Shown: positions 111-16,507, counted from the stretch's first letter. The stretch is DNA of 64,000 nucleotides from Candidatus Nanopelagicales bacterium (GCA_016463095.1 JAEMSA010000002.1:1502-65501), one strand, 5' to 3'. The notes: generated by a model not told the origin, from the letters alone. A program made the numbers and translations.

Positions 111-1142
111 ATGAGTGAAATTCGGGCTATTTCTTGGATTAACGATGGCCTTATCCTCATTGATCAAACCAAACTTCCTCACCAGGAAATTAATTTAAGT
201 ATTGAAACAGTTGACCAATTAGTCGAGGCAATAAAAAGTTTGGCGGTCCGTGGCGCACCTGCACTAGGAGCAGCGGGAGCTTGGGGAGTTGTAGTGGCTA
301 TGCGACAAGCCGCTAAAGAAAAATGGAGTAACGAAAAAAGAAATGAAGAATTTTTAAAAATTAGGAATGCTCGACCAACAGCAGTTAACTTGGCCTGGGG
401 AGTAGATAAAGTTTTACCATTTGTCACAAATGGGGTAGATGAAGTACTTGCCCAAGCAAACAGAATTGCAGCAGAAGATGAAGCTGGTAATAAACAAATG
501 GGTAAATTTGGTTCCAGTTGGATTGAAACAAAAGTAAAAAATAGACCAATACGTGCACTAACTCATTGCAATACCGGATCTTTAGCAACAACAACTTGGG
601 GAACAGCCTTAGGTGTTATTAGAGAAATGAACTCACGAGGAATTTTGAAACATGTTATTGCTGATGAAACAAGACCACTTCTGCAAGGTGGCAGATTAAC
701 TGCTTGGGAACTTTCTCACGACAATATTGAACATTTTGTTATTGCTGATGGCGCTGCCACAAGTATCATTGCTCGCGGTGAAATTGATGTTGCACTTATT
801 GGTGCAGACAGAGTTGCAGCTAATGGAGACACTGCAAATAAAATTGGTTCATTTGCAGTTGCCTTAGCCTGTAAGTACGCAGGAATACCTTTTGTAGTTG
901 TCGCCCCTGAATCAACAATTGATTTAAAAACTTTAACCGGAAAAGATATAGAAATTGAATATCGTGATGAAAATGAAATATTGAGTTTGAATGGGCAAAG
1001 AATATCTCCAGCAAAATCAAAAGGTCTAAATCCTGCTTTTGATGTGACTCCTGCCGAATTAATTTCAGCACTTGTTACCGAAAAAGGCGTTTATGAAATT
1101 TCAAATGGAGTAACTCCTGGTACAAAGTTAGCGAAAGTATAA
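111..1142 (+). CDS. mtnA: S-methyl-5-thioribose-1-phosphate isomerase (eIF-2B alpha/beta/delta-like family)
   Basis: 343-aa ORF. Blocks 'LILIDQTKLPH', 'VRGAPALGAAGAWG', 'HCNTGSLAT' and 'GADRVAANGDTANKIG' are typical of MtnA. Its stop overlaps the next start (TAATG at 1140-1144). Confidence 0.85.
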   Translation: MSEIRAISWINDGLILIDQTKLPHQEINLSIETVDQLVEAIKSLAVRGAPALGAAGAWGVVVAMRQAAKEKWSNEKRNEEFLKIRNARPTAVNLAWGVDKVLPFVTNGVDEVLAQANRIAAEDEAGNKQMGKFGSSWIETKVKNRPIRALTHCNTGSLATTTWGTALGVIREMNSRGILKHVIADETRPLLQGGRLTAWELSHDNIEHFVIADGAATSIIARGEIDVALIGADRVAANGDTANKIGSFAVALACKYAGIPFVVVAPESTIDLKTLTGKDIEIEYRDENEILSLNGQRISPAKSKGLNPAFDVTPAELISALVTEKGVYEISNGVTPGTKLAKV

Positions 1143-3133
1143 TGTCAAATATTCCAACTCCTTTAAAAGAATTAGTTGAGAGATCAAAATTCTTAGGCGC
1201 AAACCAAGATTATGTTGTTTATGGTGGAGGTAATACTTCTGCTAAAGGTGAAATCACTGATCATTTCAATAGAAATAAAAAAGTCTTATGGGTAAAAGGC
1301 TCAGGCGCAGACATGATGAATGCGGAAGCTGTTGATTATCCGGCTTTATACATGGATGAACTATTACAAATACTAAATTTTGAGAAATTAACTGATGAGG
1401 AAATGACTGATCTAGTTAGTAGAGCACTGGTGGACCCGGCAAGTAGACGACCATCAATTGAGACCTTGCTGCACGCATTCTTGCCTTTTAAGCACATAGA
1501 TCATGTTCACGCTGATGCTATTTGTGCATTAACCAATCACAAGAATGGTGAAAAAGCAGTTAAAGAGGCACTCGGAGAAAAATTTGCTTATGTTGATTGG
1601 ATCCGTCCAGGATTTGAATTAAGCAAACAAGCCTCATTTTTAAAAGATGCTGAAGGAATAATCTTGGCGCATCACGGACTGATTGTCTGGTCAGATAACA
1701 GCGATGAATGTAAACAAAAAAATCTTGATGTCATAAATAAAGTAGAGAAGTATTTAAGTTCACTTTCCAAAAGACCAGAATCAGTTTTCCAACACACAGA
1801 TTATAGCGATGAGGAATATAAGAATCTACTTTTACAAATACGAGGCAGACTTAACAAAAAAGGTAAGAAAATATTAAGTCTTGATAATAGATTGAAAGAA
1901 ATATCAAGTCGTAAAGACATAGCAGAAGTTCTAAGCGCAGGAGTTTCTAGCGCAGATCACATGTTGAGAATTAAACCTTGGTCTGCGGTACTGAGTGAAC
2001 CAAAAGATGGTGAGAAATCAATTAAGTCTATTGATAATTTTGCCAAGAAATATGAAAGCTATTTTGAATCAAATAAGAATTTATTGCCCGCTGGCTACTC
2101 AATTCATGATTCCGATCCAAGAGTTTTACTTATTCCAGACTTAGGCGCTGTGACCGTAGGCCAGTCATTGAATGAATGCAAAATGCATGCCGATATTTCG
2201 TTTCACACCCATAAAACTGCAGCTATGGCAAAAGATGCTTTTGGAAACGTTGAAGGACTTCCTGAATCAGAAATTTTTGGTTTCGATTACTGGCCAATGG
2301 AGCTTTACAAATTAGCGAGTAAACCAGCTGCAAAGAAATTTGCAGGAAACATTTTTATTGTTACCGGTGCAGCAAGTGGAATTGGATTAGGAATAGCACT
2401 CGAGTTAGCAAAACAAGGGGCAAGTCTTGTTCTGGCAGATTTAGATGAAAAAGCTTTAAGTAGCACTGTGGAGAAGATTAAAGAAGTTAAAGGTTTGAAA
2501 CCAGAAATTATTGCTGGTGATCAAGCTGATGAAAAAGTTGTTAATAAAACAGTTGATTTAGCAATCAAAACTTTTGGTGGAATAGATGGTGTTGTTTTGA
2601 GTGCAGGTATTGCGGTAACTGATCAGCTTAAAGATTTGACAGTTGAAAAATGGAACAAAGGTTTAGCAGTTAATTTAACTAGTGCATTTTTGATGACTAA
2701 AGCTGCTTTAAATGCTATGAAGATACAAAATTCGGGTGGATCACTTGTTTATATTGCAAGTAAAAATGCGTTTGCTCCAGGTGCAGGATTTGGTGGCTAC
2801 TCAGTAAGTAAAGCCGGAATGCTGCAATTAATGCGAATCGCAGCACTTGAAGGAGGAGTAAGCCAGATAAGGGCAAATGCCATAAATCCCGATGCTATTT
2901 TTGATAACAGCAAACTCTGGGAAGGAGGAATCAGGGAAGAGAGAGCAAAGGCTCATGGTGTTAAACCAGAAGAGTTAGAAGATTTTTATGCGCAAAGAAA
3001 TATTTTAAAGTCGCATGTAACTTCTAAAGATGTAGCCAATACCACTGCTTTTTTATTGTCTGATGAATCCGCCAGAACCACAGGTTCGGTCATCGCCGTC
3101 GACGGCGGCGTGGCTGCAGCATTTCCGCGCTAA
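1142..3133 (+). CDS. Bifunctional class II aldolase/adducin-domain protein fused to a short-chain dehydrogenase (RhaEW/YuxG-like aldolase/aldehyde dehydrogenase family)
   Basis: 663 aa. The N-terminal part has 'VVYGGGNTSAKG', 'WVKGSGADM' and the His cluster 'KHIDHVHAD' (class II aldolase metal site). The C-terminal SDR has 'VTGAASGIGLG' (TGxxxGxG) and 'YSVSKAG' (YxxxK). Confidence 0.8.
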   Translation: MSNIPTPLKELVERSKFLGANQDYVVYGGGNTSAKGEITDHFNRNKKVLWVKGSGADMMNAEAVDYPALYMDELLQILNFEKLTDEEMTDLVSRALVDPASRRPSIETLLHAFLPFKHIDHVHADAICALTNHKNGEKAVKEALGEKFAYVDWIRPGFELSKQASFLKDAEGIILAHHGLIVWSDNSDECKQKNLDVINKVEKYLSSLSKRPESVFQHTDYSDEEYKNLLLQIRGRLNKKGKKILSLDNRLKEISSRKDIAEVLSAGVSSADHMLRIKPWSAVLSEPKDGEKSIKSIDNFAKKYESYFESNKNLLPAGYSIHDSDPRVLLIPDLGAVTVGQSLNECKMHADISFHTHKTAAMAKDAFGNVEGLPESEIFGFDYWPMELYKLASKPAAKKFAGNIFIVTGAASGIGLGIALELAKQGASLVLADLDEKALSSTVEKIKEVKGLKPEIIAGDQADEKVVNKTVDLAIKTFGGIDGVVLSAGIAVTDQLKDLTVEKWNKGLAVNLTSAFLMTKAALNAMKIQNSGGSLVYIASKNAFAPGAGFGGYSVSKAGMLQLMRIAALEGGVSQIRANAINPDAIFDNSKLWEGGIREERAKAHGVKPEELEDFYAQRNILKSHVTSKDVANTTAFLLSDESARTTGSVIAVDGGVAAAFPR

Positions 3134-3142
3134 ACGGAAATG
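3120..3142 (+). promoter_or_regulatory. 8-bp stem hairpin spanning the stop codon of the aldolase/SDR gene (CATTTCCG-cgctaaa-CGGAAATG), no U-tract
   Basis: Perfect inverted repeat read directly from the sequence. A second 6-bp inverted repeat, AAGTGA(3152-3157)/TCACTT(3168-3173), follows. These could be an intra-operon attenuator, an mRNA-stability element or an operator. Confidence 0.25.
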
Positions 3143-3171
3143 AGTAATAGCAAGTGAGTTAAGTAATTCAC

Positions 3172-4284
3172 TTGGCAAAAGAAGGAGAAAGCATGATAAA
3201 GAACAAAGCATTAGCTGGAATCACAGTTGTTGCTGCGTTGCTTCTTGCTGCATGTTCACAAGGCAGTAGCGATACTGCTGCGACTGCAGATGAAGGAACA
3301 GTTGCAGAAGCGACCGGTCCCAAGCCAGCACCATTTGATGCTGGTCTAGTAAAAATAGCAATCGTACAAAACAGTGGCGCCGGTGACTATTTCCAACAAT
3401 GGACAAACGGAGCAAACAAGCAAGCAGAAGCAATTGGATTTGAAGTTCAAGTCTATGACGCCCAAGCTGACAATGCTAAGCAAGCTACTGACATGGAAAC
3501 AGCAATTGGTTCAGGCGTAGCTGGAATCATTGTTGACCACGGTCAAGCAGACACCATGTGTCCATTGATCAACAAAGCACTTGACGCAGGAATCCCTGTT
3601 GTTGTTTACGACGTTGCAACCGCTGAATGTGCACCAAAAGCTGTTACAACACAACAAAGCGATGCATCACTTGCACAAGTAGTCCTAGATCAAATGGCAG
3701 TAGATCTTGGTAAAGATGCCAAAGTTGGATACGTAAACGTATTAGGTATCGCACCTTTGGATCGTCGTCACGTTGTATGGGAAGCAATTGTTAAAGCTAA
3801 CAATTGGACCCAGTCCTTCTTCGTTGGTAAATTCACCAACTCAGTTGCAACTGATAACGCACAATTAGTTGACGCAGCACTTAAGAAGAGTCCAGACGTA
3901 GTGGGTATTTTTGCACCATACGATGAACTAACTAAGGGTACTGTTTCAGGAATTGAATCAAATAACCTTCAGGCTTCAATCAAGGCATACGGAATTGATA
4001 TTTCAAATGCTGATATTGAAATCATGACTAAAGATGGTTCACCATGGGTAGCAACAGCAGGTACTGATCCAAATGCGATCGGTGCAGCAGTTGTGCGAAA
4101 CATGGCACTTGAAATAGCAGGCCAATTGGGAGTTAAATCAGTTGATTTCCCAGGTGTTCTAATTACCGCACAGTTCCTAAAGGACAATGCAGTTAAGAAC
4201 ATGGTTGACTTGCGTGCCAAGTTGCCAGAATTGAACCTTGCATCTGTCAGCGGAGCTGACTGGATTCCTGCAGTTCAGTTCTAA
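3172..4284 (+). CDS. Sugar ABC transporter substrate-binding lipoprotein (periplasmic binding protein type I, ribose/CUT2-like)
   Basis: Signal peptide with lipobox 'LLLAAC'. The likely true start is ATG 3193, preceded by AAGGAG at 3182-3187. It lies directly upstream of the matching ATPase and permease. Confidence 0.75.
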   Translation: MAKEGESMIKNKALAGITVVAALLLAACSQGSSDTAATADEGTVAEATGPKPAPFDAGLVKIAIVQNSGAGDYFQQWTNGANKQAEAIGFEVQVYDAQADNAKQATDMETAIGSGVAGIIVDHGQADTMCPLINKALDAGIPVVVYDVATAECAPKAVTTQQSDASLAQVVLDQMAVDLGKDAKVGYVNVLGIAPLDRRHVVWEAIVKANNWTQSFFVGKFTNSVATDNAQLVDAALKKSPDVVGIFAPYDELTKGTVSGIESNNLQASIKAYGIDISNADIEIMTKDGSPWVATAGTDPNAIGAAVVRNMALEIAGQLGVKSVDFPGVLITAQFLKDNAVKNMVDLRAKLPELNLASVSGADWIPAVQF

Positions 4285-4309
4285 TTAATAAGTAGATGGA
4301 GGCGAGTTA

Positions 4310-5815
4310 ATGGTTTCAGCTGTTGAAGTTAGAAACATTTCAATGGCATTTGGTGCAAACCAAGTGTTAAGTGGAGTGGATTTAACAATCGACAAAGGAC
4401 AAACCACAGCATTGTTAGGAGCTAACGGTGCAGGTAAGTCCACATTAATTAAAATTTTGTCCGGTGTTTATTCATCTTTTACCGGAGAAATATTGATTGA
4501 TGGAAAAGTTGTTACCATTGACTCGCCAACTACTGCGAAATCAGCAGGTATTGAGACTGTTCATCAAAGAATTGATGAGGGAGTAATTCCCGGTTTAACA
4601 GTCGCTGAAAATTTATTGTTTGAAAAAATTGTCTCAGGAGAAATTCCAAGAGCGGTTTCTTTAAAAACAATTGTTAATGAAGCAGAAAAAATAGCTGAAG
4701 CTTTAGACCTAAATTGGAATAGATCCAAGCTACGAAATGATGTTTATGAATTAGGCATTGCTGAACAACAAATGCTGATCTTAGCCAGGACTCTTTCTAG
4801 GTCCCCCAAACTTTTAATTTTAGATGAACCAACTTCTGCTCTCTCTGTTGCTGAAAGTCAAAACTTATTTAGATTTATCAAGAATCTCGAAGCACAAGGA
4901 ATTGCTATTTTATATGTTTCTCACAAATTAAGTGAATTAGAACAAATTGCTAAGAAACTTGTTGTTATGCGAGATGGAAAGATTAGAAATGAACAAAGCG
5001 CACCGTTTTCATGGGATCTGGCTTTGAAAGAAATGTTAGGGCAACAAGAACTTGGCGAAAGAGATAATTTTAAACAGGTTCAAGGTACCAGTGTGACATT
5101 GAAATTAAATAATGTTCAATTGTTTAAGGAAAGTGCACCGTTGAATTTAGAAATAAAGAAAAAAGAAGTCACTGGAATTATTGGTCTGCTTGGTGCAGGT
5201 AAAACTGAACTTGCAAAAGTTATTTATGGGGCAGATGAATTAATTTCAGGCTCAATGGATCTTGAGGGACAATCATATAAACCAGCACATCCCGCAGATG
5301 CGGTTATAAAAGATATCTATTTAGTCCCAGAAGATCGTGCAGCAGATTCAATGATTCCAAATTGGAGTATTTCGCACACTGCAACTTTACCTTTTATGGG
5401 AGATTTTTCAGCTCGCGGAATAATTAAAAAACTTGCAGAAGGTATACGCGGTAAAGAACTTGTCCAAGATTTAAAAGTTGTGACAACTTCGCATGAAGCA
5501 TTTGTTGATTCCCTTTCTGGCGGAAATCAACAAAAAGTTATTGTGGGAAGATGGCTGCAATCAAAACCTAAATTAATGATTTTGGATGAACCATTTAGAG
5601 GTGTTGATATTGGAGCCAGAAGAGATATTTCTAAACGAGTGAGAGATTTAGCTGCCACAGATGTTGCAGTATTGGTGCTGGCTTCAGATGTAGATGAAAT
5701 TTTAGATGTTGCAGATCGAATTATTGTGCTAGTGGAAGGAAAAGTTGTAATGGATGTAAAAGCTGGGGAAACATCGAAAGACAAAATAGTAAACAAAATG
5801 TCGGAGGTGGCATAA
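4310..5815 (+). CDS. Sugar ABC transporter ATP-binding protein with tandem ABC cassettes (CUT2 type)
   Basis: 501 aa. Cassette 1 has Walker A 'GANGAGKST' and Walker B 'LLILDEPTS'. Cassette 2 has 'GLLGAGKTE', signature 'LSGGNQQK' and 'LMILDEPFRGVD'. Confidence 0.9.
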   Translation: MVSAVEVRNISMAFGANQVLSGVDLTIDKGQTTALLGANGAGKSTLIKILSGVYSSFTGEILIDGKVVTIDSPTTAKSAGIETVHQRIDEGVIPGLTVAENLLFEKIVSGEIPRAVSLKTIVNEAEKIAEALDLNWNRSKLRNDVYELGIAEQQMLILARTLSRSPKLLILDEPTSALSVAESQNLFRFIKNLEAQGIAILYVSHKLSELEQIAKKLVVMRDGKIRNEQSAPFSWDLALKEMLGQQELGERDNFKQVQGTSVTLKLNNVQLFKESAPLNLEIKKKEVTGIIGLLGAGKTELAKVIYGADELISGSMDLEGQSYKPAHPADAVIKDIYLVPEDRAADSMIPNWSISHTATLPFMGDFSARGIIKKLAEGIRGKELVQDLKVVTTSHEAFVDSLSGGNQQKVIVGRWLQSKPKLMILDEPFRGVDIGARRDISKRVRDLAATDVAVLVLASDVDEILDVADRIIVLVEGKVVMDVKAGETSKDKIVNKMSEVA

Positions 5816-6844
5816 ATGAATATCGGAAAATTAAATGCAACAAATGGATTTGACTTGAGAGATTTCATTGTCAAATACGGCTTTATTTTGGTGACAGTTA
5901 TTCTTTTTGTTTGGTTTGCTTCAACAGAGCCTACTTTTAGAATGCAAAACACTTTGTTTTCAATGCTTAAATTCACATCTGTTGTTGCAATTACCGGACT
6001 TGGTGTGACTTTAACAATGGTGGTGGGAGGTCTTGATCTTTCTGTTGGTGCAATTGCAGGATTATCAGTAACTCTTTCTGCAATGACAATGGTTATTTAT
6101 GCGCAAACAGGAGCCGTTGCCCTAGTAGTAGTACTACTGGGTGGTGCCTTAGTTGGACTATTTAATGCCTTTTTAATTGTGGTTTTAAAGATTCCAGATT
6201 TACTTGCAACCCTGGCAACGATGTTTACGATCATGGGATTAAAACTTGTTCCAGTTGATGGTCAATCAGTTTCTTCAGGTTTAATTTTAAGAGATGGAAG
6301 TGTGGCCCCAGGAAAATTCACTCCAGGATTCTTACTTATTGATCGTGCCTACCTTGGTCCCGTACCACTACCTGTGGCTATCTTTTTCTTTTTAGCATTT
6401 GTAGTTTGGATTTTCTTAACCAAAACTAGATGGGGCAGAGTTATGTATGCAATTGGCTCAAACCCAGAAGCTGCAAGATTAGCTGGCGTTCGTGTTCAAA
6501 GATACCGAGCTCTTGCTTATGCACTCTCAGGTGTTTTTGCCTCAATTGGTGGCTTGATTCTTTCGTCAAGAATTGGGCAAGGAGATATCAGTGCCGGAAA
6601 CTCTCTGTTGCTAGATGCTGTGGCTGTTTCCTTGGTTGGAACTTCAGTTTTGGGTATGGCAAGACCAAACGCATGGGGTACAACTCTTGGCGCAGTTTTA
6701 ATCGGCATAGTAATCACTGGATTAACAATTAAAGGTTTTCCATATTATGCCCAAGATGTGGTTAAGGGACTTGTCTTATTAACCGCTTTGATATTCTCGT
6801 TTACACTTTCTAGACGAAAGTCTAGATTTGTGCCGGCGGTTTAA
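5816..6844 (+). CDS. Sugar ABC transporter permease (RbsC/AraH-like)
   Basis: 342 aa and highly hydrophobic, with a multi-TM profile. Its ATG immediately follows the ATPase stop (TAAATG). Confidence 0.8.
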   Translation: MNIGKLNATNGFDLRDFIVKYGFILVTVILFVWFASTEPTFRMQNTLFSMLKFTSVVAITGLGVTLTMVVGGLDLSVGAIAGLSVTLSAMTMVIYAQTGAVALVVVLLGGALVGLFNAFLIVVLKIPDLLATLATMFTIMGLKLVPVDGQSVSSGLILRDGSVAPGKFTPGFLLIDRAYLGPVPLPVAIFFFLAFVVWIFLTKTRWGRVMYAIGSNPEAARLAGVRVQRYRALAYALSGVFASIGGLILSSRIGQGDISAGNSLLLDAVAVSLVGTSVLGMARPNAWGTTLGAVLIGIVITGLTIKGFPYYAQDVVKGLVLLTALIFSFTLSRRKSRFVPAV

Positions 6845-6855
6845 AGGAAAGAAAA

Positions 6856-8082
6856 ATGACTGATCAATACGAGTTTTTAACAAAAGATAATATTTCAAAA
6901 TATTTATCAAGCAAAAAAGTATTTGCCAACTTAATTGATGCCAACAGCCTTGTTGAATTCAAAGAAGTTGGTGACGGAAACCTCAATTTAGTTTTCATTA
7001 TGAAGGACTCTGCAGGCAAAGGAATAGTTTTAAAACAAGCTTTGCCATATGTGCGCTTAGTGGGACCTGATTGGCCTATGACTCCAACCAGAGCCAGAAT
7101 CGAAGCCGAAACCACAATTATTCATGCCAAATATGCTCAAGATCTTGTTCCAGAAATTTATGATTATGATCCAGAACGTTTCATTATTGCGATGGAAGAT
7201 TTATCTGATCATGTTGTTTGGCGCGGAGCATTAAATTTAGGTTTAAGATTTGATGGTGTAGCCGGGCCCTTAGGCAAATATGTTGCCAATACAGCTTTTG
7301 GTACTTCCGTTTTTAGTTTGGGACAAGAACAACACAAATTAGAAATAGCCAGGGCAATAAATCCAGGTCTTTGTTTAATCACAGAAGACTTAGTTTTTAC
7401 TGAACCTTATTTTGAAAACGGTAGAAACTCAGTGCTACCAAGCAATGAAAAAGATGCTCAAGAACTTGCTAACGATAAAGACATGGTCCACGAAATTGGT
7501 TTATTAAAATACAAGTTCATGACAGCTGGTGAATCACTTATTCACGGAGATCTTCATACCGGATCTGCCATGATCAAATGTGAAGATAAAAAAGTAGCTG
7601 AAAGTGTGAAAGCAATAGATTCTGAGTTCTCATTTTATGGACCGATTGGTTTTGATCTTGGCGCACTTGTTGCTAACTACACAATTGCTGCTGCTAGAGC
7701 TTGTGCACTAGGAAATGTTGAACAAATGCATTGGGCCTTAAGCCTTGGGGAACAGACTTGGGTTGCATTCGAAAAAGAATTCAGGAAACTATGGCCAACC
7801 CGAGTTGATAAAAGAGTTTTCACAGATCAACTTTTAGAAGACTTAATTAAAACTTGGAGAGAAGATACCTTAGGTTATGCAGGGGCAAAGATGGCTCGAA
7901 GAATAGTTGGACTGGCAAAAACCTCAGATATCGAAACCCTTGAACCAAATGTACGCGAAGGTGCAGCACGAGCAGTTTTATTAATTGCTAGAAAAACTAC
8001 GAAAGAAAGAGCACAAGATAAGTCTTGGGCAACACTTGCTAAAGAAGCAGCAGAAATTATCCAAAAAACAGTAACTAAATAA
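6856..8082 (+). CDS. mtnK: S-methyl-5-thioribose kinase
   Basis: 408 aa. 'EVGDGNLNLVF' is the nucleotide-binding loop typical of MtnK. 'LIHGDLHTGS' is the APH-type catalytic loop. Confidence 0.85.
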   Translation: MTDQYEFLTKDNISKYLSSKKVFANLIDANSLVEFKEVGDGNLNLVFIMKDSAGKGIVLKQALPYVRLVGPDWPMTPTRARIEAETTIIHAKYAQDLVPEIYDYDPERFIIAMEDLSDHVVWRGALNLGLRFDGVAGPLGKYVANTAFGTSVFSLGQEQHKLEIARAINPGLCLITEDLVFTEPYFENGRNSVLPSNEKDAQELANDKDMVHEIGLLKYKFMTAGESLIHGDLHTGSAMIKCEDKKVAESVKAIDSEFSFYGPIGFDLGALVANYTIAAARACALGNVEQMHWALSLGEQTWVAFEKEFRKLWPTRVDKRVFTDQLLEDLIKTWREDTLGYAGAKMARRIVGLAKTSDIETLEPNVREGAARAVLLIARKTTKERAQDKSWATLAKEAAEIIQKTVTK

Positions 8083-8090
8083 GGAAAAAT

Positions 8091-8450
8091 TTGAAAACAC
8101 CTAGAGAAATTGCCGAGTCATACTGGAAAGCAGAATGCGCCAGGGACACAAAAGCTGTGTTAGAGCACTATCACTCCGATGCAACTTTTTGCCCACCTGG
8201 AGAAAAATTAGTTGGACATGATCAAATTAGAACTTTTTATGATGCCTCAGGGGAAGCATTTCCTGGTTTAAAAGTTGATATTTTGCATGAAGTAAGAAAT
8301 GGTGATGAAAGTTGTATTGAATGGTATGCAACTCTAACCGATAAAGCAGGAAATGTTTTTAATATTCCTGGAGTAAACGTAATTAAAATAAGAGACGGAA
8401 AATTTGAATCTGTACACGCATACTTTGATCCAACAGTGCTAAAAGGCTAA
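8091..8450 (+). CDS. NTF2-fold / SnoaL-like protein of unknown function
   Basis: 119 aa with a TTG start. The pattern 'YWKAECARD..AVLEHYHSDATF' and the small alpha+beta size are typical of SnoaL/ketosteroid-isomerase-like proteins. It is the last gene of the mtnK operon. Confidence 0.5.
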   Translation: MKTPREIAESYWKAECARDTKAVLEHYHSDATFCPPGEKLVGHDQIRTFYDASGEAFPGLKVDILHEVRNGDESCIEWYATLTDKAGNVFNIPGVNVIKIRDGKFESVHAYFDPTVLKG

Positions 8451-9550
8451 TTTTCTAAACTGTCCACAAAAGTTCTTAAGCCTTTAGCGTTTTCTAAAAG
8501 ATTACCTCGGTGCAGTGCCCCACCTATTAGTAAGAATGTGTCCATCCCAAAAAAGTTTGCAATTTCTGGAATTCTGTCAATCGTCATGCCCCCACCAGGA
8601 GAAGGAAAAATTGTCTTAATATTTCCTAATTTAGAACGACAGGCATTAGCAATATTTGTGCATTCATCTTTTGAGAAACTAAATCTGCCACCAAAGTTAG
8701 GGAAAACACTTATATCTGCACCACTTAAACGCATCAAGGTTGCCAGAATTATTTCATGGTTTAAACCATGATTGCTATTCATTACATGGGATCCTAAATT
8801 TGAAGGATGACTCATGATGGGCAGTGAAACCTCTTGGCTATCTGCAATCATTCTCATGGTGTCGAATCCAGCTACTCCGGGCAGAACCATTAGCGCACCA
8901 CTACCTAATTTTCGAGCAGTAATAGCAGCTTCTAACATTTGTTCTGCTGGTCGATTAATGCTTGGTGCATAAACAGATTTTCTATTAAATTTTTGGTTTG
9001 CTTCTACAACTGCACTTGAAATTACTTTCACCCGCTCATTCCATTTAGCCCACGGCTGATTAGCCAAACTATGATCATCTTTTATTAAATCAATTCCTGC
9101 CTCAACCATAACTGTGGCAATACTTGCTAACTCAGTTGAATTTAATCCCATTGGTTTTAGCGCTGTAGCTAAAATGGGACGTTTTTTTGCTCCCAATAAT
9201 TCTCTAACTCCACTTATGCCAAAACGTGGTCCTTTTAAAGTGTTTAAAAAGTCATCAGGGAATTCAACTTTTGTCACTTTCACATCAGGAAACATTGAAA
9301 CATTTCCCCACACCACATTTAACATCTGACCTATTTCATAGCCTGTGGTGTCAGTATTGAAATCTATTACAACTTCTGTCTGGGAATTTCCAATTTCTTT
9401 GGATGAAACCACTTGACCAACAACTTCTTTTTGAATCCATTCGGGAGCCAGATCAAAGGGAAATTCAATAGTCTGCTCAACCCTGATTGCTTCAGTTACT
9501 TCTTTACTGGTTTTTGTATTAAGACGATAAGTAATCTGAATTGAAGACAT
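8447..9550 (-). CDS. RuBisCO-like protein (form IV RuBisCO large-subunit homologue, not a carboxylase)
   Basis: 367 aa. By-eye alignment to the RuBisCO large chain gives 'WGNVSMF' (N123 region), 'RPILATALKPMGLNS' (K175 loop), 'GIDLIKDDHSLANQPW' (K201/D203 motif, with His at the E204 position), 'PSPGGGM' and 'LLIGGALH'. There is no small-subunit or prk gene nearby. Confidence 0.8.
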   Translation of the reverse strand: MSSIQITYRLNTKTSKEVTEAIRVEQTIEFPFDLAPEWIQKEVVGQVVSSKEIGNSQTEVVIDFNTDTTGYEIGQMLNVVWGNVSMFPDVKVTKVEFPDDFLNTLKGPRFGISGVRELLGAKKRPILATALKPMGLNSTELASIATVMVEAGIDLIKDDHSLANQPWAKWNERVKVISSAVVEANQKFNRKSVYAPSINRPAEQMLEAAITARKLGSGALMVLPGVAGFDTMRMIADSQEVSLPIMSHPSNLGSHVMNSNHGLNHEIILATLMRLSGADISVFPNFGGRFSFSKDECTNIANACRSKLGNIKTIFPSPGGGMTIDRIPEIANFFGMDTFLLIGGALHRGNLLENAKGLRTFVDSLEN

Positions 9551-9555
9551 ACTTA

Positions 9556-10569
9556 CTACAAAGCCTCAGCTTTTGCAGTGCTATGCACATCAATCACTCT
9601 GGTTTGAGAAAGTTCTTCTTCAGATATTTTTAAGTTTTTATCCATTAGTTTTTCGGTGGCTTCAATTAAGTTACGAGCACTCATTCCATATTTATGCAAC
9701 AGATATTTTTGAGATGCTCCATGAGCGTAAGTATCTTTCAAACCAATTTTGATCAGTTTTTTACCAATCCCGTGTTCAGCAATTAAATCTGCAACAGCAC
9801 TTCCTAAACCACCAATCACACTGTGGTTTTCCATGGTGATAACTCCGTATTTACTTGATTTAAGACTTTCAATTACCCGAGGATCGGTGAAAGGTTTCAA
9901 AGTTGAAATGTGTAAATGTTGCACACTTACGCCATGTTCTTGAAGTGCAGGGATTGCTCTTAAAGCTTCTTCAGTTGATATTCCAGAACTTAAAACTGTG
10001 ACATCTGTTCCTGTGCTCAAAATACGAGCAGTGTTAAATTCCATGACCTCATTTTTTGGAAAAATCCTCGAGATTTCACCTCGCAGCATTCTGATATAGA
10101 CCGGACCATCTACTTCATGGGCCACATCTAGAACTGATTCGACTTCTGTGGCATCCCCAGTTTCTAGAATTGTCATGTTTGGGATTCCTCGCAAAACATT
10201 GACATCATCAATTGCTTGATGGGTAACTCCTCCAGGAGTTGTGATGCCGGGCAAAAAACCGACCATTCTCACCCGCAGATTTGGGTAGGCCACCGACATT
10301 TCAAGTTGATCAAGTGGTCTGCGATAAATAAATACTGCAAATGTGTGAATCCAAGGCTCAAAACCTTCACGGGCTAAACCGCCTGCAAAACCTAACATGT
10401 TTTGTTCACCTAAGCCGAAAGAAAAGAATCTTTCTGGGAAAGTGTCTCTAAATTTTCCAACTTCACAAGAACTGGTTAAGTCTGCTGATAAAACTACAAC
10501 TTCGGGTTTGAATTTACTCCAGCGCACAAAATTTTCAACGTGAGGTCTTTTAACAATTTCGTAAGCCAT
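9556..10569 (-). CDS. Transketolase, C-terminal (pyrimidine-binding + C-terminal domain) subunit
   Basis: 337 aa. 'FSFGLGEQNMLGFAGGLAREGFEPWIHTFAVF' is typical of the TK Pyr domain. It lies 1 nt after the N-terminal subunit gene. Confidence 0.85.
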   Translation of the reverse strand: MAYEIVKRPHVENFVRWSKFKPEVVVLSADLTSSCEVGKFRDTFPERFFSFGLGEQNMLGFAGGLAREGFEPWIHTFAVFIYRRPLDQLEMSVAYPNLRVRMVGFLPGITTPGGVTHQAIDDVNVLRGIPNMTILETGDATEVESVLDVAHEVDGPVYIRMLRGEISRIFPKNEVMEFNTARILSTGTDVTVLSSGISTEEALRAIPALQEHGVSVQHLHISTLKPFTDPRVIESLKSSKYGVITMENHSVIGGLGSAVADLIAEHGIGKKLIKIGLKDTYAHGASQKYLLHKYGMSARNLIEATEKLMDKNLKISEEELSQTRVIDVHSTAKAEAL

Positions 10570-10570
10570 T

Positions 10571-11491
10571 CTATTTCCAAGCTTTCAAAAAATTATTGTA
10601 TTTAATTTTTTCAAAAGGATTAGCAAATCTGACGTAATGCAGAGCATCAGGTCTATCTTTCAAAATTTCAATTCCTTTAGCTGGATCTGTGTAACCTAGA
10701 ATTACTTTTGGTTTATCTTGGAATGTTGAACCTGCAGCTAATATTTGGTTTATGTCGTTGCCGTCAATTTTTTCAACGTCCCAACCAAAGCTTTTTATTC
10801 TTTCAGTTAGAGGCTCAATTGACATAACTTTTTCCATGGGACCATCTACTTGGTTTCTGTTAACATCTACGATTACTCGAACATTACTTAAATTATGAAA
10901 ACTTATTGCAGCTAAAGCTTCCCAAGTTTGTCCTTCTTGAAATTCTCCATCTGACATAAAAATCCAAGTCTTTCCTGATTCACCGCGCAACTTTCTAGCT
11001 AAAGCAACGCCCCCTGCTTGGGAAAGAGCCTGGGAAAGAGATCCAGTTGTGGTTTCAAATCCTGGTGAATGTTCAGCACCAATCATTTCCACAGTCGTAC
11101 CATCTTTATTAAATTTCTCTAAAGACTTTTCAGTTAATCTTCCGGTTTCAATTAGGGCCGCATAAATAACAAGTGCGTAATGGGCGGGGCTTATGAATAA
11201 ACGATCTAGTGCTGGACCTTTTTCGCCATGAAATTCTGCACCGGTTATATATTCAGTGAAATTTTTACTGGGCACATTGACAAAATCACGAGGTTCTAGT
11301 GGGGAAGCTAAGGGAGCAAGATTGACGAGTTTTGTGTATAGGCAAGAAAGAATTTCTGCAGCAGAACAGGCTTGGCTTAAATATCCGCCATTGTTTTTGA
11401 CGGTGTGCTCAAGTACTCGATGGCGAATGCCATGGGCCATAGAGGCTATTTGGTCAATATCTGTTTGTGTCGATGCTTTAGTTATGCTCAT
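10571..11491 (-). CDS. Transketolase, N-terminal (ThDP pyrophosphate-binding) subunit
   Basis: 306 aa. The ThDP motif is 'SDGEFQEGQTWEA...VDVNRNQVDG'. 'SPAHYALVIYAAL' is also present. Confidence 0.85.
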   Translation of the reverse strand: MSITKASTQTDIDQIASMAHGIRHRVLEHTVKNNGGYLSQACSAAEILSCLYTKLVNLAPLASPLEPRDFVNVPSKNFTEYITGAEFHGEKGPALDRLFISPAHYALVIYAALIETGRLTEKSLEKFNKDGTTVEMIGAEHSPGFETTTGSLSQALSQAGGVALARKLRGESGKTWIFMSDGEFQEGQTWEALAAISFHNLSNVRVIVDVNRNQVDGPMEKVMSIEPLTERIKSFGWDVEKIDGNDINQILAAGSTFQDKPKVILGYTDPAKGIEILKDRPDALHYVRFANPFEKIKYNNFLKAWK

Positions 11492-11606: not shown

Positions 11607-11906
11607 CTAGCCAGCGACTGGAAATGTTTCCTTGGCTGGGGCATAGATGGCTTCTCGATCATCTTCACTCATCGCACCCCACACACCGTAAGGTTCACGC
11701 ACAGCTAAGGCATGTTCAGCACATTGGCGAAGCACAGGGCAGGTGGCACAAATCGATTTAGCCAGCGAAATCCTATTTTCGCGGGAAGGTCCACGTTCAC
11801 CCTCAGGATGAAAGAAGATCTCAGGATCTTCTCCACGGCATGCTCCCTTTAACTGCCAGTCCCATAGATCAGAGTTGGGTCCAGGAAGACGGGTCACATC
11901 AGCCAT
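11607..11906 (-). CDS. whiB3: WhiB-family [4Fe-4S] transcription factor, WhiB3/WhiD-like
   Basis: 99 aa. 'LPGPNSDLWDWQLKGACRG', 'FFHPEGERG', 'CATCPVLRQC' and 'PYGVWGAMSE' match the WhiB3/WhiD N-terminal pattern, the four Cys and the G[VI]WGG turn. Confidence 0.85.
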   Translation of the reverse strand: MADVTRLPGPNSDLWDWQLKGACRGEDPEIFFHPEGERGPSRENRISLAKSICATCPVLRQCAEHALAVREPYGVWGAMSEDDREAIYAPAKETFPVAG

Positions 11907-12024: not shown

Positions 12025-13044
12025 TTGTTCAACCACAACAGATTTGGCCAAATGAGCGTAGAAAGTGTTGCCCAAGAGTCGGTAGGCCTGACCGTGGCCG
12101 TTGTGGCCAGACGCGTGGGGGTTGCTCCAGCCACACTTCGCACCTGGGAAAGACGCTATGGAATTTATCCCACCGATAGATCAAGTGGGGGACATCGCCG
12201 CTACTCCATAACCGATGTTGCTCGGTTGGAATTAATGCGCAGGTTAGTTTTATCTGGAATGCCAGCAGGTCAAGCTGCCAAGATGGCCTTGCAATCAGAA
12301 ATTGGCAAACTTGAGGATTCATCATTTTTTGATTCCAACGTTTTAACTAAAACTGTTGATTCACTGTTAAGCAATATTTCTGTTGATTCAGAATTTAGTC
12401 ATCCCGGTGGTGGCGCTGTATTAGCAATGCAAGGATCTTCTGCGATTGCTCGCGGATTAGCTAAAGCTGCCTACTCACTTGATGCACCTGCTTGTACTCA
12501 ATTGATTCAAAACAGTTTGCATGCCAAGGGTGTTAGTTGGACTTGGGAGAAGTTGTTATCTCCAGTAATTTGTGCGCTTGGTAAGAAGTGGGAATCCTCC
12601 GGACAAGGAATTGAAGCCGAACATATTTTATCGGAATGTATCATTGGCCAATTGAAACAAATATCTGATCAATTAATTGCCCCAATAAATATAAGACCAG
12701 TGTTACTTGCTGCCGCAGCAGACGAGTTACACACTATTCCTCAATATGTGGTGGCAGCAGCGTTAGCTGAAAGAAAAATTGGTAGTAGATCACTTGGTGC
12801 AAGAGTTCCGCACGATTCTTTATTAAATGCCATAAAAAGATTAGCCCCCGCTGCTGTTTTAATCTGGGCACAAATTCCTGTGAAAACTATTCCTGTGGAA
12901 TATGAAATTTTAATTAACTCTCGACCAGCTCCACTACTGTTGATGGTTGGCCCTGGCTGGCCTGAAAATTTACCGCATGGTTTCACAAGAGCTGGAGATT
13001 TAAACTCCACCATTACAGCGATCAGTAATGCCTTGGGACAGTAA
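12025..13044 (+). CDS. MerR-family regulator with a CarH/LitR-type cobalamin-binding module (candidate B12-dependent light sensor)
   Basis: The N-terminal MerR HTH is 'LTVAVVARRVGVAPATLRTWERRYG...GGHRRYS'. The helical-bundle motif 'W189-ESSGQGIEA-E199-H200' is an exact Wx9EH. The Rossmann-like part 'VLLAAAADELHTIP...GARVPHDSLLNAIKRLAPAAVLIW' resembles the DxHxxG B12-binding domain. The start is either TTG 12025 or ATG 12052. Confidence 0.65.
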   Translation: MFNHNRFGQMSVESVAQESVGLTVAVVARRVGVAPATLRTWERRYGIYPTDRSSGGHRRYSITDVARLELMRRLVLSGMPAGQAAKMALQSEIGKLEDSSFFDSNVLTKTVDSLLSNISVDSEFSHPGGGAVLAMQGSSAIARGLAKAAYSLDAPACTQLIQNSLHAKGVSWTWEKLLSPVICALGKKWESSGQGIEAEHILSECIIGQLKQISDQLIAPINIRPVLLAAAADELHTIPQYVVAAALAERKIGSRSLGARVPHDSLLNAIKRLAPAAVLIWAQIPVKTIPVEYEILINSRPAPLLLMVGPGWPENLPHGFTRAGDLNSTITAISNALGQ

Positions 13045-13093: not shown

Positions 13094-13693
13094 TTGGTGA
13101 TGAAAACCCTAATTTGTGACACTAGCTTTAGAGCAACCAAATTATTAGAAAAAATTCTTGTTAAATTACCCCAAATATCTGAAATAGTCGTAGCCCACGA
13201 ATTAGTCGAAGTTAAAAAAGTATTGAAGGCAAATAAAATTCAGGTGGTCTTTTTAAGTTTAGATTTTGCTCAAGTGATTAATAAAAAAACCTTGCTCGAC
13301 TTATTTGGAAAAGTTCCAGTTATTTTGTTGCTGCAGCCTCGGGTGAAACCATTTTTTTCACCCGAAATCCTGCTCATTTCAGATGGAATTGTGCTCAATA
13401 ACGCCACAGATCTGGAGTTTCAGATCGTGTTGGCAGCCCTAAAAATAGATTTGGGACAAAAAATAGTTGAATCTAAATTAATCAAACCCAAAGGCAATTC
13501 CCCCTTTCTCACCAATCGAGAAATGCAGATTTTGCACTATCTATCTGTAGGCAAAAGCAATCTGAGGATTGCCCAAGAACTCAAAATTGCAGTACCCACG
13601 GTTAAAACCCATGTGCGCAAAATTTTGCTGAAGCTAAATGCCACAAATCGCACCCATGGGGTGGCCCAAGGTATTCGCTGGAGCCTTATTTAG
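13094..13693 (+). CDS. LuxR/NarL-type DNA-binding protein with an atypical receiver-like N-terminal domain (orphan response regulator)
   Basis: The C-terminal HTH is 'LTNREMQILHYLSVGKSNLRIAQELKIAVPTVKTHVRKILLKLNA'. The N-terminal part has 'LICDTS' in place of the usual acidic pair. No kinase gene is adjacent. The likely start is ATG 13100. Confidence 0.65.
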   Translation: MVMKTLICDTSFRATKLLEKILVKLPQISEIVVAHELVEVKKVLKANKIQVVFLSLDFAQVINKKTLLDLFGKVPVILLLQPRVKPFFSPEILLISDGIVLNNATDLEFQIVLAALKIDLGQKIVESKLIKPKGNSPFLTNREMQILHYLSVGKSNLRIAQELKIAVPTVKTHVRKILLKLNATNRTHGVAQGIRWSLI

Positions 13694-14884: not shown

Positions 14885-15609
14885 TTAACTTTAAAAGTAA
14901 CACTTACTACTGCTCTAACACTTTTCTCAATAGTTGAGGTGTCATAGCTTCCATATTCAGATTCAACTGAATCAGGAGGATTTACTTGCACTGAACCACT
15001 AGATCCAGAAATTGGTTCTCCTACGGTTCCACCAATAGCGGCCACCATCGCAGTGGCACGGGCTTTGGCATCAGCTACAGCTTCTTCAATAACTTTAGGT
15101 CTCAAAATTGCCAAGTTTGAAATGAAATATTCAGGGCTGCCTGAGCTTGCAGAGATTCCTGTTTGTAGCACTTGACCAATGTTTTGCGTAGCAGTTTTAA
15201 TTTTTTGTACTTCTTTTGTTCTAATTCTTAAAGTGTTGTTTGCAACATAACCAATAATGTTTGAAGTTTGAGTTCCGTTGGCTACTTCAAATGCTGTTGA
15301 GGTTGAAACCCCGTAAGTGGTTATTTCACTGCCTAAGATTCCTTGAGAAATTAAATATTCTGTTAAAACTTTTGTGTCAGCATCAACTTTTGTTACCGCT
15401 GCAGAAATGGTGGGTAATTGAGTGTTGATGTAGATATTCCAAACGGCAGTATCAGCAGTTGTCTCCACTTGAGCAGAACCGGTGACAGTAATACCTTTTT
15501 TACCTTTTTCACTTAAACCACCAGAGATAAACCAGAGGCCGGCAAAGATTGCTAGTGAGACCAATATTGAACTGGCCATCACGGTAATTAGGGTATTGCG
15601 TGTTTTCAT
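14881..15609 (-). CDS. SIMPL (DUF541) domain membrane-anchored protein
   Basis: 242 aa with an N-terminal TM anchor. 'ITVTGSAQVETTADTAVWNIYI' is typical of the SIMPL / 26-kDa periplasmic immunogenic protein family. Confidence 0.6.
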   Translation of the reverse strand: MKTRNTLITVMASSILVSLAIFAGLWFISGGLSEKGKKGITVTGSAQVETTADTAVWNIYINTQLPTISAAVTKVDADTKVLTEYLISQGILGSEITTYGVSTSTAFEVANGTQTSNIIGYVANNTLRIRTKEVQKIKTATQNIGQVLQTGISASSGSPEYFISNLAILRPKVIEEAVADAKARATAMVAAIGGTVGEPISGSSGSVQVNPPDSVESEYGSYDTSTIEKSVRAVVSVTFKVN

Positions 15610-15746
15610 AACTCAGAATCTATCAGAGACAGATATTTTTCAAATATGGATATAACTCACAAATCCTTTGTGTAAGCGCACTTTCTAGGTTTAGCTACTT
15701 TAGTTGGAACAATGACAGTCACCAATATGGCAATTGCAATTTTTGT

Positions 15747-16493
15747 TTAAGCGTTAACCTCAAAAAACATTTCAGCGAATCTGCCTTCAGGCAGGTTCGC
15801 TGTTTTTGAAGCCATACTCATCCAACCGGTGACACGTTCCCTTAAATCTGTGACATGGGCGGTTTGAGATTTGTGACACTCCAATGCTTGAAATTTTAAT
15901 TCAATCTTTTCGGTCACGTCTAAATAATGTGATGGGGAATGGTGAGACATCACCCAAATTTTTGGCACACTCCAAGGTTCTAAACCTTCTTTAAGTAAGT
16001 GTGGGAATGCAAATTGGTTTCGTGCGTCTGGATAAACCGCTTGCACCGCAACTTCCCCCACAGCCATGTGATCTGGATGAGAAGCAGGCATTCGGGCCCA
16101 ATTTCTTTCGGGTGATTGGGTGATCAAAATATCGGGTTTAACCAAACGAATTACTCGCACAAATTCTTCTCTTAAGGAAATACTTGGCACAATTGAACCA
16201 TCATCTTTTCCTAAATAGTGAATGTTGTTAACACCTAGTATTTTTCCGGCTGCACTTTGTTCAACTCTTCTGATCTTTCTCATTTCTTCTCTACTTATTG
16301 ATTCATCTTCGCCACCTTGATGGCCATCTGTGGTGATGCAATAAGTAACTTCCACACCTAGTTTTGTCAGAGTTGCAACAGTTCCACCAGCGCCAAAATC
16401 AACATCGTCAGGATGTGCAGTGATCACTAAAACTTTGGAACCAGATTTAGGTAGTTCCAGTGGTGTTAGAACAGGTGAAGTCATAGGTAACAA
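15747..16493 (-). CDS. PIG-L/LmbE-family N-acetylglucosaminyl deacetylase
   Basis: 'VLVITAHPDDVDFGAGGT' is the metal-binding motif. 'HPDH' lies later in the sequence. Confidence 0.75.
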   Translation of the reverse strand: MLPMTSPVLTPLELPKSGSKVLVITAHPDDVDFGAGGTVATLTKLGVEVTYCITTDGHQGGEDESISREEMRKIRRVEQSAAGKILGVNNIHYLGKDDGSIVPSISLREEFVRVIRLVKPDILITQSPERNWARMPASHPDHMAVGEVAVQAVYPDARNQFAFPHLLKEGLEPWSVPKIWVMSHHSPSHYLDVTEKIELKFQALECHKSQTAHVTDLRERVTGWMSMASKTANLPEGRFAEMFFEVNA

Positions 16494-16507
16494 CTTAGAC
16501 TTAGGCA

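Follow-up and report, generated by a model that had tools for sequence, protein, structure and literature searches.

An apparently undescribed gene cluster predicted to break down 5-substituted riboses through a RuBisCO-like protein and a remodelled split transketolase

5'-Methylthioadenosine (MTA) as well as 5'-deoxyadenosine, both by-products of S-adenosylmethionine (SAM), are made by every cell, and to our knowledge few routes for their disposal are known. The MTA-isoprenoid shunt of Rhodospirillum rubrum and Rhodopseudomonas palustris runs through MtnP, MtnA, the RuBisCO-like protein (RLP) RLP1 and a cupin methylsulfurylase. The dihydroxyacetone phosphate (DHAP) shunt, which coexists with the RLP route in R. 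palustris, consists of MtnK or MtnP, MtnA and the class II aldolase Ald2/DrdA, while Bacillus has an RLP of another kind, the enolase MtnW/YkrW, near mtnK and mtnA. Here we analyse a locus at positions 111-11491 of a 64 kb stretch of DNA from a freshwater actinobacterium labelled Candidatus Nanopelagicales (the window, meaning that whole stretch; coordinates are counted from its first letter), in which mtnA, mtnK, a CUT2-type sugar importer, a fused aldolase and short-chain dehydrogenase/reductase (SDR), an RLP and a two-subunit transketolase (TK) form two convergent operons. We regard it as a real, well-supported and apparently undescribed variant of SAM by-product salvage: MTA and 5'-deoxyadenosine salvage via a DeepYkr-type RLP is known, and what is apparently new is the downstream TK. 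An earlier note, made from the sequence of this DNA alone, had supposed the gene combination to be undescribed, and our search of full-text literature outside paywalls agrees, having found nothing that links an RLP, a dedicated TK and 5-methylthioribose (MTR) or 5-deoxyribose.

With the MTA-isoprenoid shunt the locus shares entry through the MtnA product, a sister RLP and the active-site states of that RLP. It differs in that a thiamine diphosphate (ThDP) enzyme of two subunits stands in for the cupin, and an ATP-binding cassette (ABC) importer plus MtnK for MtnP; four nested relatives retain the cupin, and a MetY sulfhydrylase lies beside cupin-type RLPs. Under our proposal the products would be triose phosphate and a C2 unit rather than 1-deoxy-xylulose-5-phosphate (DXP), and no external thiol would be consumed. 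Like the DHAP shunt, it brings MtnK, MtnA and a class II aldolase domain together; unlike that shunt, its aldolase is RhaD-like and SDR-fused rather than a free Ald2, and an RLP-TK module stands beside it. The window RLP belongs to another clade than Bacillus MtnW/YkrW and lacks the MtnW-specific residues.

The RuBisCO-like protein and its partner gene

The closest solved structure to the RLP is 3qfw (E 5e-65, 37% identity), which ranks above 4nas and the MtnW enolases and matches a 368 aa protein of R. palustris, the short DeepYkr RLP1, at 100% identity. This R. palustris RLP1 is a proven 5-methylthioribulose-1-phosphate 1,3-isomerase (PMC5893883). In a tree built by neighbour joining from 95 sequences and 365 columns (100 bootstraps, form I RuBisCO as root), the window RLP family and alphaproteobacterial DeepYkr proteins form one clade with 100% bootstrap support, in which the window family is sister to DeepYkr rather than nested within it (family monophyly 73%). 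The YkrW/MtnW clade (2oek, 2zvi, 3fk4, 4nas) falls outside with 95% bootstrap and OiaX further out with 90%; the RLP is thus a sister of the DeepYkr isomerases and not a member of a clade with a different proven substrate such as that of OiaX, the placement that would have spoken against the substrate assigned to it earlier.

At the active site the family shows form IV states (K177→M, E204→H, R295→P, H327→V/I, K334→R), with K175, K201, D203 and H294 kept. It agrees with 13 DeepYkr sequences at N123 (Asn), E204→H, K334→R, L335→F and S379 (Ala/Gly), and the sole difference between the two groups at active-site columns is Met versus Gln at K177. In the YkrW/MtnW enolase a Lys at the RuBisCO N123 position is catalytic; the window family has Asn there in 76/76 sequences versus Lys in 4/4 YkrW, and its His, Arg and Phe line up with Glu, Ser and Val in MtnW. 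Against the MtnW model NF007095, its best NCBIfam match, the RLP scores 209 bits (cutoff 409), and against the OiaX model NF042437 it scores 96 bits (cutoff 700), which together with its tree position rules out an OiaX or apiose enzyme. We predict that the RLP, closely related to the DeepYkr enzymes, is a 5-methylthioribulose-1-phosphate 1,3-isomerase.

The gene that accompanies the RLP carries the comparative argument. Downstream of the DeepYkr RLP gene in Rhodopseudomonas, Rhodomicrobium and Magnetospirillum comes, in each case, a Cupin_2 gene that overlaps it. We compared two samples, an RLP-first set of 80 genome loci (65 determinable) and a TK-first set of 80 metagenome loci (49 determinable). 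Genes for the two TK subunits (TK-N, TK-C) stand directly upstream of the RLP gene in 41 of the 65, and the RLP gene directly follows TK in 40 of the 49. Cupin homologues (45-50% identity, E 1e-37 to 1e-42, tblastn) occur in four of the 80 window-type RLP loci (L006, L009, L010, L013), all four among the 24 RLP loci that lack TK, and no Cupin_2 methylsulfurylase homologue occurs in the 80 TK-first loci. The cupin-linked RLPs have the active-site states of their relatives, and in the tree they join the subclade of the window RLP, leaving other TK clades outside (95% bootstrap). In this sample, one RLP family is partnered by a cupin or by TK and never by both. This mutual exclusion argues more strongly than any other comparative result for TK acting on the RLP product, and it supports the suggestion of the earlier note that TK takes the cupin's place. 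In two of the cupin loci (L006, L009) the cupin and RLP genes have between them a gene for an O-acetylhomoserine sulfhydrylase of the MetY type (596 bits, cutoff 495), which would be expected to capture methanethiol.

The wider neighbourhood is conserved as well. Among the RLP-first loci flanked by 8 kb or more on each side (n=20), mtnA is present in 17, TK in 15, the aldolase-SDR gene in 14 and mtnK in nine, and in six RLP-first loci all ten genes are co-linear on one strand. Fully flanked TK-first loci (n=20) have RLP in 18, mtnK in 13 and the ABC importer in 12. TK-RLP also keeps company with mtnK/mtnA, as had been surmised, in 24/32 TK loci with usable flanks and in 13/18 of the TK-first set. 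Since the same genes cluster in both sets and in several phyla, the arrangement is far beyond chance. The RLP group itself numbers at least 585 matching stretches in species-representative genomes plus thousands of metagenomic proteins, and public annotations of the cluster genes are generic.

Hosts of the cluster include freshwater and marine Actinomycetota, one Chloroflexota metagenome-assembled genome (MAG), Alicyclobacillus and Rhizobiales plasmids. In Alicyclobacillus a SorC regulator, a Cys/Met pyridoxal phosphate (PLP) enzyme and an amino-acid permease precede mtnK-mtnA-TKN-TKC-RLP. The same packed operon is found on Pararhizobium qamdonense p3 (L087) and on pOANT04 of Ochrobactrum anthropi ATCC 49188 (L088; OANT_RS24845-24865), divergent from an ABC importer and adjoining an aldolase-SDR gene; because the complete cluster (OANT_RS24825-24865 on pOANT04) sits on plasmids of cultured Rhizobiales, horizontal transfer is implied.

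Independent evidence of functional coupling comes from centric diatoms, in which RLP and TK are fused as one polypeptide. Both Discostella pseudostelligera (KAL3762590.1, P0393, 1066 aa) and Conticribra weissflogii (MMETSP transcript, P0410, 1130 aa) have a full-length RLP-linker-TK-N-linker-TK-C protein that keeps the RLP motifs ALKPMG, KDDH and GGRF and the TK signature GGYLSQ, ELIGAEH and GFLPGLTTPGGVTHQ; such a Rosetta-stone fusion suggests that the two enzymes work together. Further RLP-TK fusion entries are P0243, P0245 and P0247. Other architectures of the TK alone were seen among prokaryotes: a single-chain TKN-TKC of 661 aa (P0242, P0406; their cluster includes a TK-C protein of a Nitrospirota MAG), and a TK-N of 498 aa with an extra N-terminal domain of ~200 aa (P0241, P0422).

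The split transketolase subfamily

The nearest solved relative of the TK is the Carboxydothermus split TK 6yak/6yaj, which has the same subunit split and keeps all canonical residues. We aligned 39 TK-N/TK-C pairs, each joined end to end, with E. coli TktA, whose numbering is used here. H66, D155, G156, E160, N185, E411, F434, F437, Y440 and H473 are kept; the ThDP/Mg2+ motif and the activating Glu (D155, G156, N185, E411, H66, H473) are intact in 38-39 of the 39 sequences, and the phosphate clamp R358, S385 and R520 is retained. Fold, cofactor ligands, activating Glu and the Arg/Ser/Arg phosphate site are thus those of TktA and of 6yak/6yaj. In contrast to canonical and split TKs, the family replaces H26 by Tyr (39/39), H100 by Met (38/39, with one Leu), and H461 and D469 invariantly by Phe and Gly; it also has an insertion of ~35 aa in TK-N and a conserved C-terminal extension of ~25 aa in TK-C. 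The Y/M/F/G signature is common to the Alicyclobacillus, Rhizobiales and diatom copies. A search of 1.84 billion representatives returned 104 clusters at E <= 1e-30, with the signature motifs concentrated in roughly the top 70 matches and canonical TKs beyond them.

Profile scores likewise place the subunits apart from named enzymes, below every TK and DXP synthase (DXS) equivalog cutoff: TK equivalog scores are 187 and 157 bits (cutoff 488), and the DXS model TIGR00204 gives 146 bits for TK-C and 23 bits for TK-N (cutoff 466), the enzyme being split in two. The Pfam scan found just Transketolase_N, Transket_pyr and Transketolase_C, and no XFP (phosphoketolase) domains, an absence that says nothing about a phosphoketolase-like way of working. 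With four substrate-reading residues replaced, we rejected an ordinary transketolase serving the pentose phosphate pathway (PPP). Of the replaced residues, H100 in canonical TK touches the donor's C1 hydroxyl and D469 senses the acceptor's C2 hydroxyl; a TK engineered to lack histidines of the H100 type can take a donor that bears a methyl group. The alignment therefore suggests an enzyme with intact ThDP catalysis and a remodelled substrate pocket that has lost its readers of the donor C1 hydroxyl, and a Met in place of H100 suits a donor with CH2-S-CH3 or CH3 on its C1.

The subfamily has a second context as well: at three loci (L109:1550-6992, L130:4458-9942, L136:5609-10989) RLP, mtnK and mtnA are all missing, and the TK is flanked by a CUT2 sugar permease, a Zn-dependent dehydrogenase of the Tdh/polyol type and a cytoplasmic molybdopterin S/N-oxide reductase of the BisC family, whose TIGR00509 score of 809 bits is under the cutoff of 1017. 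It may be that oxidised (sulfoxide) thio-sugars, or another route to the TK substrate, are handled there.

Candidate pathway and alternatives

On balance we favour, without great assurance, the reading that the locus is a self-contained system for importing and breaking down 5-substituted riboses from SAM by-products, in which the RLP product would be cleaved by TK with elimination of methanethiol. The substrates would be MTR from MTA and probably also 5-deoxyribose from 5'-deoxyadenosine. The importer has the Peripla_BP_4 binding protein, fused double ATPase and BPD_transp_2 permease of CUT2 monosaccharide systems, and the two entry enzymes of the DHAP shunt, MtnK and MtnA, exceed their equivalog cutoffs. 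Uptake, phosphorylation and isomerisation accordingly follow from family membership: the importer brings in the sugar, MtnK phosphorylates it at C1, and MtnA yields 5-(methylthio or deoxy)ribulose-1-phosphate.

Two exits would then be open. In one, the aldolase-SDR protein would give DHAP and (methylthio)acetaldehyde or acetaldehyde, which its SDR domain would oxidise or reduce. This presumed DHAP-shunt-like exit, with 5-(methylthio or deoxy)ribulose-1-phosphate as predicted substrate, draws on a fusion that is a conserved neighbour in 57 loci, with mtnA as its steady companion, and that keeps the Zn His triad in 50 of 51 aligned sequences and the TGxxxGxG and YxxSK motifs in 48 of 51; the catalytic Glu of FucA/RhaD finds no confident alignment in the family. 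Its two-domain architecture is that of RhaEW (YuxG), the rhamnulose-1-phosphate aldolase/lactaldehyde dehydrogenase. We rejected that identity, as the score of 518 bits lies below the TIGR02632 cutoff of 567.75 and no rhamnose genes (rhaA, rhaB, rhaM) are nearby; the NF006190 score of 574 bits is likewise below its cutoff (1014).

In the other exit, the RLP would form 1-methylthio-D-xylulose-5-phosphate, or DXP from 5-deoxyribose, and TK-N/TK-C, in the place of the cupin methylsulfurylase, would attack at C2 and cleave C2-C3, releasing glyceraldehyde-3-phosphate and leaving a ThDP-bound C2 fragment. Because the resulting enamine has a good beta-leaving group in its thioether, methanethiol elimination to acetyl-ThDP, leaving as acetate or acetyl-phosphate, would be the likeliest fate. 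Phosphoketolase and sulfoacetaldehyde acetyltransferase form acetyl-ThDP when a beta-leaving group departs from a ThDP enamine; the proposed likeness lies in that loss, here of methanethiol and in a protein without XFP domains. All five carbons would enter central metabolism and reduced sulfur would be freed for methionine synthesis, with no external thiol and no build-up of DXP. That yield of central metabolites and sulfur may be why importer and kinase are often found at TK-type loci and not at the four cupin-type loci (small numbers). We put forward only tentatively, as an analogy that could well fail, the specific claim that the TK-like protein is a new ThDP-dependent C-C/C-S lyase converting 1-methylthio-D-xylulose-5-phosphate to glyceraldehyde-3-phosphate, methanethiol and an acetyl unit, and so the heart of a catabolic route.

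Several observations weigh against this scheme. The RLP is distant from RLP1 (37% identity), differs from DeepYkr at K177, and belongs to a family whose monophyly has 73% support. No riboswitch, SAM-type included, came up when the window and seven loci from four phyla were scanned with Rfam at gathering thresholds, and this, with regulators of the sugar type, is no less compatible with carbon catabolism than with sulfur salvage. Pairing of RLP and TK is not obligatory, because nine of the 49 TK-first loci have no RLP, at least three of them with a BisC-like reductase and a Zn-dependent alcohol dehydrogenase (Zn-ADH) beside TK; conversely, 20 of the 65 RLP loci (Planktophila type) have neither TK nor cupin within 10 kb, and three TK loci do carry a cupin, of the different DUF985 family. 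Within TK, an invariant His four residues past the Met ('MIGAEHSPG') and the motif 'LHY' could restore the roles of H100 and H261, in a region where the alignment is ambiguous and the H261 column not confidently placed, and a simple donor of the xylulose-5-phosphate type would not lead one to expect D469 and H461 to be lost. In part the aldolase exit seems to duplicate the RLP-TK exit, and the chemistry of the RLP-TK family is read from sequence.

The alternative we take most seriously, while thinking it rather unlikely, changes the substrate: 5-deoxyribose or another non-sulfur 5-substituted pentose, with DXP cleaved to glyceraldehyde-3-phosphate and acetaldehyde or an acetyl unit, for carbon use or detoxification. 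A methyl group would suit Met at H100 as well as methylthio would, a 5'-deoxyadenosine-deaminase-like hydrolase lies near some TK loci, and the regulators and missing riboswitch agree. Furthermore, 5-deoxyribose is accepted alongside MTR by MtnK/MtnA-type enzymes of the DHAP shunt and serves E. coli as a carbon source for growth (PMC10986504). The sulfur context points the other way: MetY or the Cys/Met PLP enzyme adjoins RLPs of this family, a methylthioinosine phosphorylase is found nearby, the second TK context has an S/N-oxide reductase, the hosts are auxotrophic for reduced sulfur, and the nearest RLPs have proven activity on the methylthio substrate. Nor are MTR and 5-deoxyribose mutually exclusive as substrates.

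It is unlikely, in our judgement, that the TK is instead a true transferase handing its methylthio- or deoxy-C2 unit to an aldose acceptor, with a new 1-substituted ketose phosphate as product, or a simple lyase that protonates the unit and releases 2-(methylthio)acetaldehyde or acetaldehyde for the SDR to process. The full catalytic core and phosphate clamp would allow this, the aldolase-SDR gene accompanies TK at many loci and could share the aldehyde product, and dedicated split TK transferases serve the apulose-4-phosphate and sulfoquinovose pathways. However, D469, the reader of the acceptor C2 hydroxyl, is lost; a thioether beta to the ThDP enamine should, on chemical grounds, eliminate readily; release of the same aldehyde and triose phosphate would duplicate the aldolase exit; and Alicyclobacillus and several other TK loci have no aldolase-SDR fusion.

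Quite improbable is a third possibility, in which the sugar phosphate handled by RLP and TK is an unrelated one (ribulose-1-phosphate to xylulose-5-phosphate, or a branched or keto pentose of the apiose or hamamelose kind), MtnK and MtnA being paralogues, or TK is an extra PPP enzyme. RLPs do have several unrelated proven functions, and the ligand of the binding protein is not assignable from family matches. Yet MtnK and MtnA exceed their equivalog cutoffs, OiaX is distant in score and tree, cupin-type members with identical active sites nest in the RLP family, MTA-level enzymes are nearby, and a PPP TK would retain H26, H100, H461 and D469. For hamamelose, an RLP of O. anthropi is reported in its catabolism (cited in PMC8914248), in a passage that places the gene amid hamamelose genes; pOANT04 has no such context, and we provisionally set this candidate aside. 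A 2025 study of Nanopelagicales isolates describes a 'distinct type of transketolase' in abundant Planktophila and reads it as a boost to the PPP (PMC12817590), which favours the extra-PPP variant; if that enzyme belongs to the present TK subfamily, the PPP interpretation would need revisiting.

Finally, an RLP acting as MtnW-type 2,3-diketo-5-methylthiopentyl-1-phosphate enolase, with the aldolase-like domain as MtnB dehydratase, has next to no likelihood: MtnW is the best NCBIfam match and MtnB shares a Pfam family with class II aldolases, but the sequence already contradicts this, with a score far below cutoff, no Lys at N123, His, Arg and Phe for the MtnW residues, a position outside the YkrW clade, no MtnX or MtnD in the scanned window open reading frames (ORFs), and an aldolase domain of the RhaD-ADH fusion family.

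Locus, surroundings and biological meaning

Features of the locus are collected in Table 1. The ORF map reproduces, base for base, the ten genes, coordinates, spacing and overlapping convergent stops described in the earlier note, and its statement that MtnX, MtnD and cupin are missing from the locus stands too: tblastn gave no match to a methylsulfurylase-type cupin anywhere in the window, and no MtnB/C/D/X-like gene is among the ORFs of at least 140 aa scanned in its 16-64 kb part.

Table 1. Genes of the locus in window coordinates, with the matches behind their assignment.
Feature	Coordinates	Strand	Evidence
mtnA, S-methyl-5-thioribose-1-phosphate isomerase	111..1142	+	TIGR00512 equivalog 402.5 bits (cutoff 279); PF01008
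Class II aldolase (N-terminal, RhaD-like) + SDR (C-terminal) fusion	1142..3133	+	PF00596 + PF13561/PF00106
Lipoprotein substrate-binding protein, CUT2-type sugar ABC importer	3172..4284	+	PF13407 Peripla_BP_4, 108.8 bits
ABC importer ATPase, two nucleotide-binding domains	4310..5815	+	PF00005 x2; AraG/XylG/RbsA-like 343-373 bits, below cutoffs
ABC importer permease, RbsC-like	5816..6844	+	PF02653 BPD_transp_2, 137 bits
mtnK, S-methyl-5-thioribose kinase	6856..8082	+	TIGR01767 equivalog 384.6 bits (cutoff 275)
SnoaL_2/NTF2-like protein, accessory gene	8091..8450	+	PF12680, 61 bits
RLP, 367 aa	8447..9550	-	RuBisCO_large, PF00016; best PDB match 3qfw
TK-C subunit (pyrimidine-binding + C-terminal domains), split ThDP enzyme	9556..10569	-	PF02779 + PF02780; best PDB match 6yaj, 213 bits
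TK-N subunit (diphosphate-binding domain), same split enzyme	10571..11491	-	PF00456; best PDB match 6yak, 122 bits

By ORF coordinates, neighbouring genes in each operon are spaced -1 to 38 nt apart. The convergent operons end in overlapping stops (TAA at 8448-8450 on the + strand, 8447-8449 on the - strand); no terminator lies between these stops (8447-8450), and a scan of the locus for promoter and terminator consensus sequences gave nothing informative. The binding protein translation shows the lipobox LLLAAC, and models of ribose, rhamnose and xylose binding proteins match it weakly. MtnK has as best PDB matches a 2pyw chain, deposited as an 'uncharacterized protein', and the B. subtilis MTR kinase 2olc. 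The SnoaL_2 protein weakly matches limonene epoxide hydrolase in the PDB, and its gene is confined to few lineages, with 12 occurrences in the 80 RLP-first loci and none in TK-first loci.

Upstream of TK-N by 115 nt and on the same strand, an ORF at 11607-11906 (-) looks WhiB-like by eye from its translation and is kept in the closest relatives only (eight loci). Two further ORFs, at 12025-13044 (+) and 13094-13693 (+) (339 and 199 aa), look by eye like regulators of transcription. The remaining window genes are housekeeping (PcrA, SucCD, PurH, Mdh, Icd, SdhAB, acyl-CoA carboxylase, cell-wall genes, ManABC, MtrAB-LpqB), and one gene of the SAM cycle, for S-adenosyl-L-homocysteine hydrolase (54927-56396, +; PF05221, 499 bits), lies 43 kb from the cluster. 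Because the closest relative locus (L004; 86-98% aa identity) is in a bin labelled acTH1 and Nanopelagicales relatives are only ~50-59% identical, the label 'Nanopelagicales' for the window is imprecise. Some record titles elsewhere in our samples are implausible, namely 'Bifidobacterium breve' (L002, L042, L045) and 'Rubrivirga' (L011, L050); their genes and synteny are of Nanopelagicales-type Actinomycetota.

Related loci add sulfur and nucleoside context. The Alicyclobacillus TK cluster includes its Cys/Met PLP enzyme; a methylthioinosine/MTA phosphorylase (233 bits, cutoff 223) neighbours some TK loci, as does a hydrolase resembling MTA/5'-deoxyadenosine deaminase, accompanied by permeases and an ABC binding protein of the BMP type. 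Also recurrent as neighbours are an RbsD/FucU mutarotase and regulators of the GntR/UTRA or SorC type. At several TK-RLP loci (L038:538-7869, L039, L048, L058, L059) we observed a nucleoside-level module of a BMP-type ABC system, a TRZ/ATZ amidohydrolase similar to MTA/5'-deoxyadenosine deaminase, methylthioinosine phosphorylase and cytidine deaminase, joined by an unfused SDR and a DUF985 (Cupin_5) protein. L048 has its mtnA and its aldolase-SDR gene split over several ORFs, through frameshifts or as pseudogenes. Two cupin-domain genes on pOANT04 (locus 14996-17639) stand among flavin-dependent (FAD) oxidoreductases and gave no match in the methylsulfurylase search. The Planktophila-type loci have the order mtnA-AldSDR-(mtnK)-RLP (L012, L017, L019, L025, L027, L029, L032, L057, L069 and 11 more), followed by genes for a FUSC-like membrane protein and a Zn-ADH/quinone oxidoreductase, probably through synteny only.

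If the favoured reading of import, isomerisation and TK cleavage is right, MTA and 5'-deoxyadenosine would have an additional disposal route, in which an RLP feeds a remodelled transketolase instead of a cupin. The transketolase superfamily would gain a new activity and a large group of RLPs a function, and the RLP-TK fusion protein of diatoms would be explained. Under the more tentative lyase reading, the anabolic MTA-isoprenoid shunt would have been turned into a complete catabolic one, and the RLP-TK unit would also operate on Rhizobiales plasmids and, fused, in centric diatoms. The whole operon on the plasmid of Ochrobactrum/Brucella anthropi ATCC 49188, which is cultured and genetically tractable, makes these proposals testable. 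Nanopelagicales, among which relatives of the cluster occur, are without assimilatory sulfate reduction (PMC12817590, PMC5301498). If the proposal holds, MTR, as a common exometabolite, could supply both carbon and reduced sulfur to abundant freshwater Actinobacteria that do not assimilate sulfate.

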